A stretch of 64,000 nt of DNA, from the NCBI GenBank assembly GCA_964016885.1, contig OZ024740.1, positions 166,780,001 to 166,844,000 on the forward strand, in the 5' to 3' direction. The notes beneath the pieces are model-generated. The model made no database searches. It was not told the origin of the DNA and saw nothing but the letters and a program-made list of their open reading frames with translations. A program made the position numbers and the translations under genes. Positions within the stretch are counted from its first letter, which is position 1; each line of letters starts with the position of its first letter. Positions 6,323 through 29,868 of the stretch are shown here, in pieces. This stretch comes from Eledone cirrhosa. Its lineage: Eukaryota.

Positions 6323-8123
6323 AGAGTTAAGAATAACGTAAATTAAATACAGAGGTAATTGAAATTAAATATATACATACACGCATCCAAATACGTACAT
6401 ACACAAGCATACGCGAAAACACTCGCCATGGGTATGCAAATACAAGCACGTACACAAAGTCACGCACCAACATACAGAATCCACGCAACGCCTGTACCCG
6501 CACACCCTTACACCAGATACACATGAACAAATATATGTATATAAAATACATATATATATGTGTGTGTGTGTGTGTATACATAATTAAATAAACGTAGATA
6601 AATATACACACGTAAATAGGTATATAACGCGCGCACACACATACCTACATGTAAATACACATAAGTTCGCAGACGTACGTCAACCAAAACACACAGTATA
6701 CATATACACCCACCCACATACGTACGAACCCGCATGCTCACACATACGCAAAACTCACGTATACACCTAACCAAATGCACATGTACCAGTATATATATTA
6801 TATAGGCCATAACATATACAAGCAAACATACTTACGAGAAAGTAGACGTACCTTCAAAAAACATACAGGTAAAATATACTTACCTCTACAAATAAGTAAT
6901 GGTATAAACATAAGCTCCAAAGAAACGTTTCTTACCAGGTTCTTGGTTATGGTGGCAGGATGGTTAGAATGCCTACTTATGTAATTAAGAGTATTATTCG
7001 CCTTTCTATACGGGTATGCAAGCCATTCGACAAATTGAGGGTAACGTCAAGGTAATTAACGACCGAGAAGTTGGCCTCAACCTGTATGGAGGGGTTGAAG
7101 CCTTTATAGCAGGCTGTGTGTTCTTTTCGAACATGTCTCAAGCACGTGGGCCGCACGTTGTCATGGTCAAATGACCGTCATCACGGTACAAACCTCCGCC
7201 CACTTTGTGGAATTCTTCCTTGATAGAGAAACAAAGGAAAAGTCCGATAAGATCAGTAACCTCTGCATAATCGCTGGCGCCCATACTCACGTCGAATGGG
7301 GTACTATTAGATGTTTTAATCCACACAGAGTCGTCGAAATTAATCACCGATTTGCGGGCATTGAGGACGACATCATCTTCGAAATCCTTAACCATTGTGT
7401 GTGTTTTATCGAAATGGATAGCTCTAAGAAGAAGTGGTAAAGTGATAGAGGAGTAGGAATTATTGATGTCGAATTGGATAAAACGGCAATGTTCCTTATT
7501 GCATATGCCGTTAAACCAATCAATCACCGCGAAAGAATTGTCCCACAGTGCAAGAGGGGCCAAACATCTAATTTCAGGTATAATTCTATCTAAAATCATT
7601 TTCCTAAGTCTACCTAAATCGGACTTCATAGGGTTAATAAGCCGAATAGAGGGGTTGTTCGGAAAATGGGATTTGTGATCCATCAGGGTAAAGTGGGGAG
7701 AAACAAGGTCCAGAGGTTCAGTTCCGTCCAGGATGTTGAGATCAGAGGTGGTTTTAAACCCAGCATCGTTGATCTCATTAATGGCGCTCCGATTAGTTTT
7801 ACGGTAATCCTTAGTTACAGCATTATGTAGCAGTTGATGGTAAGTACTGCACTCCACTTGATATAGATTGCCAGTTTTGACGGAGTTGACATGCACGGCA
7901 TTAGAATCCTTAATAGAACACATTCTATTCTTCAGGTCCTGCTAGAAGGAATTGCTCCTGTTCCGAAATGTGATACTCCGTATGAGTCCCAATACATCAT
8001 TTTCGAAGGGTAGCAATGCTGGGTTACTCGGAGGCTTAATATAGGTTTTAAACCCAAATTTATCCTGTTTGTTGTCTACTTTTCCCTGATTATCGAAATA
8101 AAAGGCACGCCAACGCAACCTTT
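6323..8123 (-). mobile_element. Inverted, 5'-truncated and internally deleted Penelope-like element copy
   Basis: 6919-8123 is the reverse complement of about 9180-10345 (ORF 7138-7923: QFDINNSYSSI, MGASDYAEVTDLIG, YRDD). 6684-6915 matches about 11225-11470. 6323-6683 matches 8123-8497. Confidence 0.9.
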
Positions 8124-8514: not shown

Positions 8515-8790
8515 GAATAGAATTTTAGTCTACGACTTCAGTTATACCATTTACGTAGTTTTGTCTTTGCGTGTAATTGTTCTCACGGCTCCCCATAATG
8601 ACGTATAATCTTCGTTTTTTCGTTCATTGCCAGAGAACGTCTCCATTCAACCATCTAATAGAATATTAGTCTACGACTTCATTTATACCATAAACGTAGT
8701 TTTGTCTTTGCGTGTAATTGTTTTCACCTCACCAAATAATGACATATTATGTTCGTTTTTTTTCGTTCTTTGCCAGGGAACGTTTCCACG
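8515..8790 (+). repeat. Two-copy ~140-bp tandem duplication inside the 5' pseudo-LTR
   Basis: AATAGAAT.TTAGTCTACGACTTCA.TTATACCAT..ACGTAGTTTTGTCTTTGCGTGTAATTG begins at about 8516 and about 8657. Confidence 0.85.
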
Positions 8791-9077: not shown

Positions 9078-11150
9078 ATGCAGAAACAACATCTGAATAT
9101 TTCTACAAAGAACATACCCGTACCAAGCAGGAAAACATACCTAAAACTCCTTATACAGAAAACAGACGCGTTCATTAAAAGGTTACGTTGGCGTGCCTTT
9201 TATTTCGATAACCAGGGAAAAGCAGACAACAAAGAGGATACATTTGGGTTTAAAACCTATCATAACTCTACGAGTAACACAGCATTGCTACCCTTCGAAA
9301 ATGATGTCTTGGAACTCATACGGAATATCAATTTTCGGAATAGGAGTAATTCCTTCCAGCAGGACCTGAAAAATAGAATTTGTTCTATTAAGGACTCTAA
9401 TGCAGTTCACGTCCACTCGGACAAAACTAGTAATCTATATCAAGTGGAACGCAGTACTTACCATCAACTGTTACATAATGCTGTAACTAAGGATTACCGT
9501 AACACTAATCGGAGCGTCATTAATGAAATCAACGATGCTGGGTTTAAAATCGCCTCTGATCTCAACATCCTTTAATGGACTGAACATCTGGACCCTGCTT
9601 CTCCCCACTTTACACTCAAGGATCACATATCCAATTTTCCGACTTATTAACCCTACGAAGTCCGATTTAGGTAGACTTAATAAGAGGATTTTATATAGAA
9701 TTATACCTGAAATAGAAGTTTGTCACCTCGTGCAATTTTGAACAATTATTTCGCGGTGATTGATTGGTTCAACGGCATATGTAACAAGGAACATTGCCGT
9801 TTTATCCAATTCGACATCAATAATTACTACTCCTCTATCACTTTACCACTTCTTCTTAGAGATATCAATTTCGCTAAAACACTCACAGTGGTTATGGATT
9901 TCGAAATTGATGTCACCCTCAATGCCCGTAAGCCGATGATTAATTTCGACGACTCTATTTGGATTAAAAAATCTAATAGTACCCCATTCGAGGTGAGTAT
10001 AGCCGCCAGCGATTCTGCAGAGGTTACTGATCTTATCGGCCTTTTCCTTCGTTTCTCTATCAAGGAAGAATTCGCCAACGTGGGCGGTGGTTTGCTGCGT
10101 GATGACGGTCTTTTGACCATGACAACGTGCGGCCCACGTGCTTGCGACAGGTTCAGAAAAGAACTGACAGCCTCCTTTAAAGGCTTCAACCTGTCCATAC
10201 AGGTTGAGGCCAACCTCTCGTTCGTTAATTACATCGACGTTACCCTCAATTTGTCGAATGGCTTGCATACTCGTATAGAAGCCGAATGATATGCTTAATT
10301 ACATAAGTAATCATTCTAACCATTCTGCCAGCATAACCAAGAACCTGGTAAGAAACGTTTCTTTGAGGCTTTCCCGTCTATCTACAAATGAGCATATTTT
10401 CAACGACCATTCCACATATTACAATGAAGCTCTTACTCGGAGTGGATTTGTCGATAAGAGTACGAGAATAGACCTAGGAAAAATAGATCCCGACGCATTA
10501 TATGGTATAACCCACCATATAATATGGAGGTGGCCACACCATTAGCTAAGATCTTTCTCTCCCTTATTATGAAGCATTTCCCCCCAGCACATAAATATAG
10601 TAACATATTTAATAGAAATACCATTAAAATTCCTTACTCTACGACTCCTAACCTTGCAAATAACATCACAGCTTCAAATTTAGCTAAATTACGTAGCAGT
10701 AGTAACACGGCAACCATGTAGCTAGTACTAACTTTAATTGTAGGAATCATGTTGACTGCCCCCTACCCGAGAAATGCCTCTCTAGTAACATTGTCTACAA
10801 ATGTAAGGTTGAAACACCCACGTCCCGTAGGGCCTACATAGGGTTAACCGCCAATAGATTCAAGCAGCGTCTTTACATGCATACCCATTCTTTCCTTAAC
10901 CCGTTAAGAAGGAAAATGACATCACTTTCAGCTTATATCTGGAGTCTAAAAGACAACCACACCCAATATAAGTTACACTGGGAGATCCTAGCTTAGGCTA
11001 GATCGTATAACGGAAATAAAAGACCATGTGACCTCTGCGTGGCTGAGGCCCTGGAAATGCCCTATGCCAAAAACCATTCTTACAAAAAAAAAATCTGAGG
11101 CAATTTAGGCTTGTAAACATAAATTGCACAAAACTTTCCTGTATTACAGC
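9078..11150 (+). pseudogene. Disrupted PLE polyprotein: reverse transcriptase + Cys-rich linker + GIY-YIG endonuclease
   Basis: N-terminus KNIPVPSRKTYLKLLIQKTDAFIKRLRWRAFYF; RT motifs FDINNYYSSI and LRDDGL; thumb YISNHSNH...RLSRLS. Manually translated C-terminus NCRNHVDCPLPEKCLSSNIVYKC..AYIGLTANRFKQRLYMHTHSF..TSLSAYIWSLKD..CDLCVAE. Several stops and frameshifts. Confidence 0.9.
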
Positions 11151-16468: not shown

Positions 16469-17099
16469 TGCAGCAGATGTTCTTGTTTTCTCTTGTTTGA
16501 TTAGCCTCAAGAAACTTTACGTCCAAAATCATTTGATTCGTAAATATCACGTGTTTCCCCCGGACATAATGTATCAAGAACTTCAATATCATATGTGTAT
16601 TCACTTTACTGAAGACGATACTTATTAGCGAATATTATTAGCCTATCGAGACACCTTATATATAACATCCTCCCTTCATTCCATAATAGTAAAGAGATAT
16701 TTTCATTAAAAGTAAAAAGAGCAAACAAATCAGAAAAAAGTCTAAAACAACAACTTACATTGATTTCTCATAAAAATGCAGGATGTTATCAAGTAAGCCA
16801 TTTTCTGTATGTAAATGTGGATCTTATATATTATTAAATGGAGTAATTGTAATTCGAATTAAGCATGCTGTAATTGGAAGAACACAGCACATTTTCAATT
16901 TAAACCAATTGCTGTTAAGCACGGTGTAATTATATATACGCGCTATTCCATTCATGTACGGCGATATAATAATTATATATTTTGTTTTATCAACATAAAT
17001 GTTCTTTAATATCTATGAGTGAATGAATCCGGAAAATGAGATCGTAAAAGAGTAAATAAAAGAGCAAGAGAGGTTATATGTCTTAATTCGTATGGTGAG

Positions 17100-19550
17100 C
17101 AAATGTGGTCCCACGTGCTGGCCTCCCCACAGCCCCGGCGGACAGAATAGAGAAGGCGTTTCCCAGAGGGATGGAAACGGAGATGCGGCTGGCCAGCTCA
17201 GTGCCTATGGTGGTGAATAGGGAGGTAGCCCTAGAGCCAAGGACACCAGAAGTCTCCACTGCCAAGGGCACGACCATGAACGTGTCGGAGAGTGACCGGG
17301 ACTTGGCGAGTTTGGCCTCGTCAACCCGCCGTGCAGCAGTACCTGGGTTAGTCGCAGACAGCATCAGGTTGTGGCCTGAGAAAGTGTCGCTGCAAGTGGC
17401 ATCCCAGACGAGTGGTTTGTCACAGCGGAACAGGAAGATGGTCATACCGTCTGGCCTTTTGCCGTCCTCTCTGTCCAACCACAACGGTTCGAGCTTGGAG
17501 AGGAAGCCTGGAATGTCCAAACCATTATTTATGACATCTTTGAGGGCAGCATGGCGTTGAAAACGGCCGGCACTGTCGCAACAGGAAAGCAGGCGGAAGC
17601 CGAAAGAGTCCACGGTTGATCCGTAGCGACTGGAGGCCGAAAGCGTCCACTGTGGATCCACAGCGACATTTATGTGGCTCGCAGATCCAGAGTCCAAGCC
17701 TGAAGGAAACGCCGATGCGCAGGCTATCGTTATCCAGCTGCGTGCCAGTGGAGAAGGAGGGCAAGGCATGGAGCAAGCTCCACTGTGGGGTTTGGAGGCA
17801 GTGCTGGTCGAGATGGCACATGACCAGTCTGAGGCCAGGCTGCACTGGAGTGCATCCCAAATGTTTTTTTTTGGGGGGTTGGGGTCTTGACGTCAGTAGA
17901 AGAAGGAGAAGGAGAAGGGACATTTACTGGGCTAAGTCACAGCCGGTCCCACGTCCGTAGGCAGCCTCACGTTTCCTGATCACAGAGGATTCTATTTGGC
18001 TTTGGAGAACCCTACTGACGAGGACACTGCATGAGGTTACCGATGAAAGAACAGCTGGCAAAGCCATTGAGATCGGGGATCCGTGATCAAGGCCGCCATA
18101 TCTGACAGGTATCGAGGTCAGCGAGGAGAGATGCGTGGCTGTAGCAGGGAGCGCTGTGAAGGGTGTAGAAGAGCTTCGGCATGGTGTAGCAGTTCCCCAA
18201 CAGAAACAGAGCTGGGTGATATTGATCAAGCCCAAACGGCTCGTAAAAGCCTTCAGTTGCTGGAATCTGGACCTGAAGGTGGAGCGGATGGCTGGTAGGT
18301 GGATCGGTGACCCGAGAATGAGGACATCCTCTTTGGGGGTCACCTGTACCTGGTGGATAATAGACCGCATGACCGCATGTCCGAGACAGTGGCTGCAAAG
18401 CTCACAGCATCATGGCTGACATTCACCACCACTGACTTGGACGAGTTGACCTGTAGGCCGATTCCCGCCAGGGCAGGAACCACGAAATCATCCAGATACG
18501 AAACGTTGAGAGAGGTCGTCATACTCCGAGCAAAGTTTTCTATACTAAGGGAAAGCAGGAGGACGCCTAAACGGTCGCCCTGTTGGACCCCAGTGGCTGA
18601 AGTTATGACTTTATCAGCAGCGTGGAGAATGCTCGGGTCTCCATATGACAGGTAGGCCAGCGGGTATTGGAGGGGGTTCGGCTGAGGCAGGCAGCAGAGA
18701 GTAGATGGTCTCAGCGTATGTAGTTAAATGCATTCCTCATGTCAAGTTTGACAATAAGGTGCCTGGAGTCATTGGATGCCGGTTCTGGTGGACAGCTGTT
18801 GAAGAACTGCTTGCTTGCATGTGAAGACCCCCCCCCCCACAGACACCGGACACGCTGACACCCAGTTGCACCGAACTGAACTCCTCACCCAGTTTAGTTG
18901 TTATGGACCTGCAGACCACCTTAGCAGCGAGCCTCCGGAAGACATTGCTCACAGCGAAGGGGCATATGCTACCCTCTTTCTTTCTAAGAGCGGTCAGGCT
19001 AGCCGAAAAAAATAGACCATGGGCGTGAGGGTCCAGGGCCTAATGGATAAGCCTATTGGTGAGTGCCACAATTGCACTAAGAAGGCCGCGCCCGGTCTCA
19101 GTTAATGCCAGAGCTGGGGAGGCCGAGGGTTAATGGGGAGAAATAGAAGAGGCGCTCCCAGTCGCTGGCTCGATTGGAGTCCAGGGAACTCTCAATCGAG
19201 GAAGAGACGGCATCGGCTAACGGCACCCGGACCGTTCTTTGGGTCTTGAGCGGAATCATCCGGAGGCGCCTGAGCCGAGCGATGATGACCAGCGAGGCTT
19301 GGACATCAGGCATGCTCTAGTGGTGTGCCAGACGGCCGTGGCTGGGCAGACGAGGGGAAGAGAGAATTTCTCCAGCTCCACGCTGCAAGGGCACTGGAAG
19401 CTGGACGCGTCAAGCCAACTTAGGTGAGGTGGTGGAAGCAGCCGCACCCCGAACAATTCCGGCTCCTCTTCCGTCTGGTCCTGGTGCTGCAAGTGCTGCA
19501 GTTGTCGACTTGTGGGAAGGAAGGTGGGGCGTTGTCACTGTCTGCCAACG
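17100..19550 (-). mobile_element. CRE-clade-like non-LTR retrotransposon relic (RT + Cys/His knuckle + restriction-like endonuclease)
   Basis: Fragments NVFRRLAAKV, QLGVSVSG, KLDMRNAFN, SATGVQQGD, YLDD, CRCG..VDAFG..LLSC..AGRFQRH, EDGKRPDGMT..LVWDATCSDT, PLAVETSG. GC-rich; frameshifted. Confidence 0.85.
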
Positions 19551-27141: not shown

Positions 27142-27480
27142 ATAATGAGAAGTTCAGATATATGTGCATACATACATATGTATGTATGCACATACATGTA
27201 TATATAAACATATATTTTTTTCACAAGTATGTGAGATTGTGTGTTGTCGACCTTAACTAGTGTTGCTTTATGATTATGAGAGACAAGATAATCGAAATAA
27301 TTAAATTGACACAATATCAAAGCTATGTAAAATATTATAAAGTAAGAAGAAATAATAGACACAAATATATACTTATTTTTTCTTCAATGTCCCGACTTCA
27401 CATACTTGTGAAAAAAAAATATATATATGTTTATATATACATGTATATGTATGTATGCACATATATCTGTGTACCTCAAT

Positions 27481-28309
27481 TGTAGCAATGTGGCTAGTCA
27501 GTGTGGTAACTACTTCTGATCAGATCCGAGAATAGCCCTTAAAAGGACTGTTATCGCATACGGTCTGATTGGATCTGAGGGTAGCCCTTAAAAGGACTGT
27601 TGCCACATGCGGTAAGGATGAACAGACGAAAGCACAAGTTGAAAGGACGAGCAAAGCGAGAGATTAGTTTCGGTCAGCTATTTATTTCCATACATGAAGC
27701 GACGATACAGAGGTACAAGGCGTGTGTGAGTGACAAGCGTGGCAGAGAAGAGGAACAACGATACGCGAGTTGACTCTGCCAAAGGTCGACTGGTGAAAGT
27801 GTTTGGAATCACTCTATTTATACAAAAATAATCGTTTGATATTTAGCCGCTGCGTAGGCGTTTTATTTTGGTGGCTTTAAGAGTTGTTTGTTTCACGGTG
27901 AGGTAGCAAGCTAAGCAGATAGATGGAGCTGTTTATTTCACAGATGTTATTTCCGGTGGCTGTACATTAGCCCACTACCAGATCTTTTGTACAACAAAAC
28001 AGCGAAATATCGTATAGTAATGAATCAGCGGTGCATTTGTCATGATAATAGCCCAAGGAGTGTCTAGCACGTTGTGAAGTTTGGTGATCATCGAGTATAG
28101 GACAGAGTCGATGTAGAGATATGGCAAGATGTGTGTCAGGAAAATACAATAAAAAAAAAATAACTCCCTCACGGTAGAGTAACCACGGAAGTATAGTGAC
28201 TGCCTTCAAACAAACACTATATACACTTCCAGTCAACCTTAACACCCTTTGTAGCCTCTGTATCATATTAATATCCCCCTCCGCCTTGTGAGATATTTTA
28301 CCTGCTACA
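27481..28309 (-). mobile_element. Solo-LTR-like segment
   Basis: Termini TGTAGCA...TGCTACA (7-bp inverted, TG..CA). On the minus strand TATAAATAG (27814-27822) is followed by AATAAA (27681-27686). No clear target-site duplication. Confidence 0.55.
27583..27598 (-). promoter_or_regulatory. Histone-mRNA-type 3' stem-loop (second copy at 27534-27549)
   Basis: Minus strand CAAC-AGTCCT-TTTA-AGGGCT-ACCC: 6-bp stem, 4-nt UUUA loop, ACCC 3' flank. Duplicated with 49-bp period. Confidence 0.55.
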
Positions 28310-28600: not shown

Positions 28601-28884
28601 TATTTAATGTATAATAAATAATACAATATAATTACCTCATTACCAGAGATTTCCCGAATAAGACTGATACAAGAAATGTCGGCATTCGTTCGTCAGACAA
28701 GGCAATTTAAAACATAGTGAAATATTTTAAAAATCTCCTTAAGAAAGGAGGTTTTTCAAATATTTCACTATGTTTTAAATTGCCTTGTCTGACGAAAGAA
28801 TGCGGACATTTCTTGTACCCGTCTTATTCGGGAAACCTCTGGTAATGAGGTAATTATATTGTATTGTTTATTATACATTAAATA
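28601..28884. repeat. ~284-bp near-perfect palindrome with a hammerhead in each arm
   Basis: Arms pair from the centre CTCCTT-aaga-AAGGAG outwards to TATTTAATGTATAATAAA / TTTATTATACATTAAATA. Confidence 0.95.
28780..28853 (+). ncRNA. Type I hammerhead ribozyme motif (mirror copy 28632-28705, minus)
   Basis: Stem I TTGCCTTGT/ATGAGGTAA, CTGACGA, long stem II, GAAA, stem III CC-tct-GG, GUA triplet. Confidence 0.8.
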
Positions 28885-29347: not shown

Positions 29348-29868
29348 TTGTTCATATATTGTCAAAGTTCTTTTGTCACACAGTATGTGACCTCTTCAGT
29401 GACTGGGGGTTGCTTTCTTTGCTTTGCGCCTCTCCTTTGTTCTGTCCTACGCCATCTTGTTTGTGTGTGTGTTGTGTGATTAATTTGCGCATGTGTTACA
29501 TCCGGGTGTCTGTAGGTCTTTTTATTTGTTTAATTATTTGTTTATTTACATGTTACTAGTTAGTTGTTTGTTCTATGTGTGTGTTTTCATGTTGTCCTTA
29601 ATTGTAAGTTGTGATATTGCTATTCCATTCATGTTTTCTATTTAATTTTGGTTGGAGTTCATTTATGTAAATAAACAAATATATAAACCAATAAAAACAC
29701 ACACAGACACTCGGATGTAACACATGCGCAAACTAAGCACACAACACAGACAAAAACAAAATGGCGTAGGACAGAACAAAAGAGAGGCACAAAACAAAGA
29801 AAAGCATCCCCAGTCACTGAAGAGGTCACAGAATGTGTGACGAAAGAACTTTGACAATATATGAACAA
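29348..29868. repeat. Fold-back element with ~200-bp arms, hammerhead in each arm
   Basis: 29348-29551 is the reverse complement of 29664-29868. A third copy lies at about 31060-31260. Confidence 0.9.
29813..29855 (+). ncRNA. Minimal type I hammerhead motif (minus copies 29361-29403 and 31104-31146)
   Basis: GTCA-CTGAAGA-G-GTCACA-gaatg-TGTGAC-GAAA-GA(A/G)C-TT-TGAC. Confidence 0.75.

Follow-up and report, generated by a model that had tools for sequence, protein, structure and literature searches.

The SLBP stem-loop is regarded, to our knowledge, as a private signal of replication-dependent histone mRNAs. Mobile elements are known to capture host RNA signals, and a histone hairpin in an LTR family and in Helitrons would add a further variant, which may well amount to a regulatory route not seen before. 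Cassandra (5S), Helenus (tRNA) and Ajax LTRs each hold a piece of a host RNA gene that is thought to be used by the element, the pieces being Pol III promoters of non-autonomous elements (PMC10886601, where the word histone is absent), whereas the case described here concerns a hairpin of a protein-binding mRNA type in an autonomous family. HERV1/LTR12 elements carry HDE-like motifs, likewise a multicopy piece of the histone 3'-end code near the LTR transcript start, but there the piece is a U7-pairing element acting in transcriptional repression independently of SLBP, according to the available text (PMC11417402), and here it is the stem-loop. A Culex Helentron is a rolling-circle element with histone-gene sequence, which in the portion of the report at hand is broken coding sequence in one family (PMC4067079), in contrast to the 3' hairpin module that alone lies behind RepHel in several diverged canonical Helitron lineages here. 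Elements of the CsRN1 clade, as far as their description was accessible (PMC2582038), have a tRNA-Trp-type primer site, a CX2HX9CX3C motif, a 4-bp duplication and the order PR-RT-RH-IN; the motif, the duplication and the domain order recur in the family studied here, which has a conserved primer site presumably of that type and differs in having 2-4 histone-type hairpins in its U5, and no such report was found for the clade. More widely, no report joining the histone hairpin with LTR elements, Helitrons or transposons was found in a search of literature that included few subscription papers. General background is given in the accessible parts of PMC5368982, PMC13525598 and bioRxiv 10.64898/2026.08.17.745202.

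In the window (the whole stretch of DNA analysed, 64,000 nucleotides), a truncated element is represented by its 3' LTR and some 200 nt of its internal part. An LTR-like segment had been described here in the initial annotation, and it is an LTR, as seen from the shared TG...CA boundaries, the paired copies and the retroelement domains. The features are as follows.

27481..27966, minus strand: 3' LTR of 486 nt, TG...CA, CsRN1-type Ty3/Gypsy by its match, element truncated here; boundaries common to 30 copies
27967..28165, minus strand: internal 3' remnant with polypurine tract (27967-27979) adjoining the LTR; 91-93% match to the internal ends of L031-L036
27815..27822, minus strand: TATA box; TATAAAT in 59/64 full LTRs
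27681..27686, minus strand: AATAAA poly(A) signal; AATAAA in 51/64 full LTRs, with 4 single-base variants and 9 unclassified
27622..27660, minus strand: U/GU-rich stretch past AATAAA, likely the downstream poly(A) element and start of U5, from its sequence and a layout as in PMC3601003
27562..27610, minus strand: repeat unit 1, 49 nt, identical to unit 2 at 38/49
27513..27561, minus strand: repeat unit 2, 49 nt, as compared with unit 1
27583..27598, minus strand: histone-type stem-loop 1, with A1-U16, G2-C15, the wobble pair U3-G14, loop UUUA and flanks CAAC / ACCC
27534..27549, minus strand: histone-type stem-loop 2, 16-mer identical to stem-loop 1
27515..27524, no strand: perfect 10-nt palindrome TCTGATCAGA in unit 2, a candidate dimerisation sequence
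27509..27515, minus strand: weakly like the downstream element of host histone genes, at 18-21 nt past stem-loop 2 (host position 12-18)

Searching the 3.0-Gb genome at the DNA level brought up 658 candidates, and 40 were scored. Six LTR-paired copies are elements of 5.3-5.9 kb with LTRs about 5.3 kb apart, and full elements hold Gag-like, protease, RT, RNase H and integrase domains. The Gag CX2HX9CX3C motif was detected in 31/46 loci, a conserved primer site, presumably of tRNA-Trp type, follows the 5' LTR in 33/46 loci, and a 4-bp target-site duplication was found in 13 of the 15 scorable elements, several of them within TA repeats. By its Gag motif, primer site, duplication and domain features, the hairpin-bearing family appears to match CsRN1-type Ty3/Gypsy elements, and it is young (5'/3' LTR identity 90.7-100%, 23 pairs). 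Insertions in TA microsatellites are frequent (L033, L035, L284, L287, L290, L298, L299, L313). At window 27477-27480, next after the LTR, stands ATTG, which is how the sequence past 5' LTRs begins, though internal sequence precedes the LTR as in a 3' LTR; this is perhaps the remnant of a tandem junction and perhaps chance.

On the minus strand of the window, AGTCCT-TTTA-AGGGCT occurs twice, at 27583-27598 and 27534-27549, with a spacing of 49 nt, and no further match to this 16-mer with at most two mismatches was found in the window (0.02 expected from shuffles). The positions and the shuffle expectation bear out the two tandem histone-type hairpins of the initial annotation. The rest of the duplicated unit had been called diverged; differences do exist, but 22 of the 33 positions outside the hairpin are identical. 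The chance that all differences between the units spare the hairpin is 0.007 for the window copy and 0.03 for a typical LTR copy with 8 differences, a number counted by eye. Both window hairpins are predicted to fold in the R-U5 context with pair probabilities of 0.77-0.99, while copy L311 has three hairpins, of which only one forms in its predicted leader fold.

The first hairpin lies 83 nt past AATAAA, close to the 80 nt estimated before, and the hairpins span 83-147 nt past this signal. They lie in the U5-like part of the LTR. In animal Metaviridae LTRs, AATAAA followed by a U/GU-rich stretch is the usual layout, as stated in the available part of PMC3601003. With a transcription start inferred near 27790, a full-length transcript would have the hairpins in its 5' leader, whereas at its 3' end they would fall past the poly(A) site. 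Because the conserved AATAAA is upstream of the hairpins, any role of theirs would be in the 5' leader or the nascent RNA rather than at the mRNA 3' end. The earlier idea that the LTR mimics the histone hairpin is partly supported, the hairpins being histone-type beyond chance, flanks included.

Compared with the RF00032 histone stem-loop, the window hairpins share the 6-bp stem, the G2-C15 and U6-A11 pairs, U1 and U3 in a loop of 4 nt and A/C-rich flanks, but they are closed by A1-U16, stand in tandem past a poly(A) signal, have an unconvincing U7 element, and are neither linked to a histone ORF nor placed 20-45 nt past a stop codon. The stop-to-hairpin distance in host histone genes is 19-43 nt, while the window hairpins sit inside an LTR, in line with the lack of a nearby histone ORF noted at first. 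Hairpin 1 with its flanks equals a host H2B locus (L058) at 22/24 bases; the remaining two belong to the basal pair, where the change is compensated (G1-C16 to A1-U16). In a host-histone flank matrix, the 12 flank bases alone place hairpin 1 in the top 0.1-0.3% and hairpin 2 in the top 1.4-1.6% of positions. Where an LTR has three copies, its additional upstream unit has a low score in this matrix. The A1-U16 closure was found in none of the sampled host histone genes, all of which close with G-C. H1 genes were rejected as its source, the four hairpin-bearing H1 loci all having G-C. Mussel H1 genes may have an A-U form of the hairpin, although a literature search did not confirm it. The host genome encodes an SLBP domain, in a gene at 30.10 Mb of C13.

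Scoring with the Rfam Histone3 model (RF00032), a check proposed with the initial annotation, gave the first window copy 22.9 bits (E 0.0024) and the second 15.4 bits (E 1.5), so that both fall short of the gathering score, which is 34. For three true 3' ends of host histone genes the range was 27.1-34.6 bits, with two of them likewise short of it; one LTR copy (L032) scored 27.8 bits and four Helitron copies scored 27.3-31.6 bits.

To follow conservation within the family, 40 loci among the best matches of an RT search were combined with six LTR-picked elements. U5 was present in 66 LTRs, belonging to 43 elements, and these LTRs were picked without use of the hairpin. All 66 LTRs carry hairpins (two in 33, three in 31 and four in 2), so the hairpin is kept in every family copy sampled, a check that had been proposed earlier. 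Intact hairpins make up 134/167, and at least one is intact in 64/66 LTRs. The common substitutions among the 43 elements are C4U (34), U8C (30) and G14A (14), each of which retains six pairs, G2-C15 and loop U1/U3. According to the accessible text of PMC4604434, SLBP binds the loop U2C form (equal to U8C here) like wild type, while loop U1C and U3C are reduced or impaired, and G2-C with loop U3 are given as the diagnostic positions across animals in the available part of bioRxiv 10.64898/2026.10.14.759114. Nine of the 48 possible single changes are SLBP-compatible, and so are all three common ones (p = 0.06 among transitions), which makes the compatibility of the common variants a weak test. 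A shared-vs-private Fisher test (p 0.001) was set aside as inherited variants are not independent. Recurrent pair-breaking changes were also found (G13A in 5, C15U in 5 and G12A in 4 elements). Common-variant columns number 1/16 and 2/16 in the hairpins and 5/68 and 3/53 in flanking U5; the comparison of hairpin and flanks proposed earlier thus shows that the hairpins are no better kept than the U5 flanks.

Eighteen loci at 74-83% RT identity were taken as a sister sample, one of which is a member of the hairpin family. Conservation in related LTRs, by which the initial annotation had wished its proposal to be judged, was not observed: the LTR hairpin is absent from the 17 loci of sister Gypsy families (74-79% RT identity; 3-4 loci without a detected LTR pair) and from 23 Gypsy loci of other samples, which have 28-64% RT identity and include four whose LTR pairs are clear. 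In a contig of another sample (L324), the minus strand has a histone-like hairpin of six pairs, flanked by ACCAC, at about position 8734 of the locus as reversed, and no histone ORF was found upstream of it.

Beyond the LTRs, and unexpectedly, the motif is also carried by Helitrons, which the initial annotation did not mention. A canonical-hairpin pattern had 202 matches across the genome, versus 3 for its control. The first 30 of the 202 matches, all on one contig (C1), fall into five groups, all Helitron-type; judged by representatives, three groups have helicase ORFs and two are single copies with Helitron-type termini. The Rep domain PF14214 was detected in 3/3 and PIF1 PF05970 in 2/2 of the ORFs scanned. 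Eight long Helitron loci, chosen as hairpin carriers, all have the hairpin in sense, past the helicase and, where the terminal palindrome was found, before it. This 3' palindrome followed by CTAG, which defines Helitrons in the available text of PMC4067079, is distinct from the histone-type hairpin. A less biased count came from a helicase search seeded from a carrier family (top 30 plus every third further row, 70/150), in which the strict hairpin pattern was found in 26 of the 70 Helitrons in sense and in 0 in antisense; at <=2 mismatches the numbers are 41 and 1, confined to four clusters, and 0/22 copies in seven other helicase clusters have it. It was likewise absent from the dominant distant Helitron family (58 of 63 loci in a PF21530 sample, from which 27 near-identical loci of a segmental array were excluded and every second remaining row taken) and from one subfamily of lineage C.

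The Helitron hairpin belongs to a module of about 50 nt, consisting of an upstream GTGAAC word, the histone hairpin, ACC and a downstream TTGTT word. It lies in sense orientation, some hundreds of bases past the stop of RepHel, in four lineages of Helitrons and in two unassigned Helitron-like copies (module-bearing loci L358, L389, L404, L411, L417, L167, L173, L428-L435). The module is commonly in tandem, with periods of 34, 76 or 95 nt. Carrier lineages have 61-78% helicase identity. Between lineages B, C and D (61-68%) the sole alignable parts are the module and the terminal hairpin, and between A and B (78%) the alignment is more extensive. Because the module is a conserved island, its function is better supported than that of the LTR copies, and it may be a histone-type processing signal. 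Carrier and non-carrier Helitrons are interleaved on a poorly resolved tree, and the patchy distribution is possibly due to loss or exchange. Some tandem units have the exact form of the LTR (20/20 perfect match), and no longer LTR-Helitron alignment beyond the hairpin was found; among other units, one has a compensated fifth pair and some have loop C1 or C3, which should make the latter poor SLBP sites. Module-bearing and module-free Helitrons are not told apart by poly(A) hexamers, and downstream-element scores of the modules are weak (-3.0 to 6.1).

Several further arrangements were observed in Helitron-type elements. A non-coding family (L130:6480-7300, L131-L155; 604 candidates) includes copies with arrays of up to seven hairpins, in which the A-U form of the LTR and the canonical G-C form are mixed, and other copies without arrays. 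Within one Helitron family, a 306-nt hairpin-bearing 3' segment is present or absent (L171 vs L274, L277, L278, L279).

The reading that we tentatively prefer is that the LTR hairpins are histone-derived, predicted SLBP landing sites on the RNA leader of the element and functional there, a proposal put forward with less than firm confidence. Their origin is likely the host histone 3'-end system, the route into the LTR possibly passed via a Helitron, and the hairpins likely let element RNAs borrow the host histone-RNA binding protein. The full-length RNA would begin in the 5' LTR, with the hairpins about 190-260 nt from the cap and 50-120 nt before the primer site; without a strong U7 element no cleavage would take place at the LTR hairpins, and bound SLBP would probably promote histone-like export or translation of the unspliced RNA in cycling or germline cells. 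In the Helitrons, the position behind the RepHel stop and the conserved downstream word would make a histone-type 3' end more likely. The SLBP reading is favoured because of the H2B likeness, the histone-like flanks, the presence in every sampled LTR, the compatible common variants, the host SLBP domain and the sense-oriented Helitron hairpins. It is weakened because of the p-value of the variant test, the recurrent breaking changes, hairpin columns as variable as U5, sister families that spread hairpin-free, the lack of A1-U16 in sampled host genes, the L311 fold, Helitron units with loop C1 or C3 and Helitrons without the module; no precedent for SLBP at a cap-proximal site was found. A wider version, in which Helitron lineages would end their RepHel mRNA by SLBP/U7, with transposition tied to S phase, and the Gypsy LTR would multiply the hairpin for SLBP escort of unspliced RNA, is conceivable but doubtful. 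If true, mobile elements would sense S phase directly or enter the oocyte histone-RNA pathway, the ending and timing of Helitron transcripts would become testable with short RNAs, and thousands of such hairpins might compete for SLBP.

The hairpin might also be a neutral passenger, that is, a histone- or Helitron-derived fragment captured in an ancestral U5 and multiplied by reverse-transcription slippage without function. This is a serious rival, though on the whole we doubt it. The hairpin-free sister families, conservation not above the U5 flanks, the high identity of LTR pairs in a young family, the variable hairpin number (2-4) and the Helitron array unit with a 20-nt perfect match in the same genome all fit such an origin. 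It is less easily reconciled with the compatibility of all three common changes when few of the possible ones are compatible, and with the finding that none of the sampled LTRs has fewer than two hairpins; in Helitrons at least, conservation of the module as an island over 61-78% helicase identity argues for function.

Among the signals in the leaders of retroviruses and Ty1 are palindromes and tandem hairpins. Whatever their origin, the hairpins and the palindrome TCTGATCAGA could help the RNA to dimerise, to be packaged or to place its primer, by way of the Gag of the element and free of SLBP; this too is a serious rival, though we consider it unlikely. The hairpins do stand directly ahead of the primer-binding site, and every long repeat unit couples a hairpin with the 10-nt palindrome, which has a degenerate copy in unit 1 (27564-27573); in the fold prediction the two palindromes pair as a long stem with hairpin 2 on top. 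However, the palindrome is present in two copies in 38 and in one copy in 16 of the 66 LTRs, leaving 12 without it, and a structural role would explain neither the retention of loop U1/U3 and the histone-like flanks nor the identical form in Helitrons, which are not packaged.

Under another explanation, SLBP and U7 would cut the nascent RNA just after hairpin 2 in S phase, so that the 3' LTR would yield an end without poly(A) or the 5' LTR a short abortive RNA. Human LTR12 is repressed via U7-complementary motifs, as described in the accessible part of PMC11417402. The host downstream element (L037-L066, L097-L108) is a short W-W-G-T word, 12-18 nt past the hairpin in 38/41 contexts, unlike the long purine-rich vertebrate form. 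The initial annotation had seen no clear purine-rich U7-binding element, and we agree: there is none after hairpin 1, and the weak likeness after hairpin 2 scores 3.8 (75th-90th percentile of random), compared with a host median of 6.9. A search for host U7 snRNA with Rfam gave four sub-threshold matches, none convincing, and an Sm-site pattern gave 9 matches versus 16 in controls, none with a U7-like hairpin. Although the likeness past hairpin 2 would suit such a cut, it is weak and 3-6 nt too distant, and AATAAA and the U/GU-rich element are conserved upstream, which makes a second 3' end or attenuator very unlikely.

A site acting at the DNA level, where the near-palindrome binds a host DNA-binding protein or forms a single-stranded DNA hairpin common to both element types, seems highly improbable. 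It would account for the sharing between a retroelement and a rolling-circle DNA element, for tandem arrays, which are typical of enhancers, and for Helitron units that are poor SLBP sites, but it conflicts with the strict sense orientation in helicase-picked Helitrons and with the histone-like flanks. Folding energy of the LTR hairpin is -6.4 kcal/mol for sense RNA, -2.7 for antisense and -1.9 for DNA; because the G-U pairs are lost in antisense and DNA, the wobble pairs are effective as sense-strand RNA only, and the G-T forms scarcely fold as DNA. Chance resemblance to the histone hairpin, to which the Rfam scores under the gathering threshold and a phage gene family matching a 20-nt version of the pattern (6 of 2.9 million viral contigs, itself read as chance) might point, is largely refuted by the H2B match with its compensated pair, the independently scoring flanks and the canonical forms in Helitrons, and is scarcely credible.

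Other repeats were detected in the window. Two inverted arms of 1.2 kb (6912-8123 and 9178-10371; 88% identity) contain broken ORFs, which we take to resemble Penelope-type reverse transcriptase, and a GC-rich segment on the minus strand (17086-18723) has broken ORFs resembling non-LTR reverse transcriptase. Just upstream of the truncated Gypsy copy lie long, near-perfect palindromic or inverted-repeat elements (28601-28884 and 29348-29868). Elsewhere in the genome, near-identical Helitron and Gypsy copies recur every ~100-130 kb on four contigs (C19, C20, C27, C16), pointing to a very large segmental tandem array.
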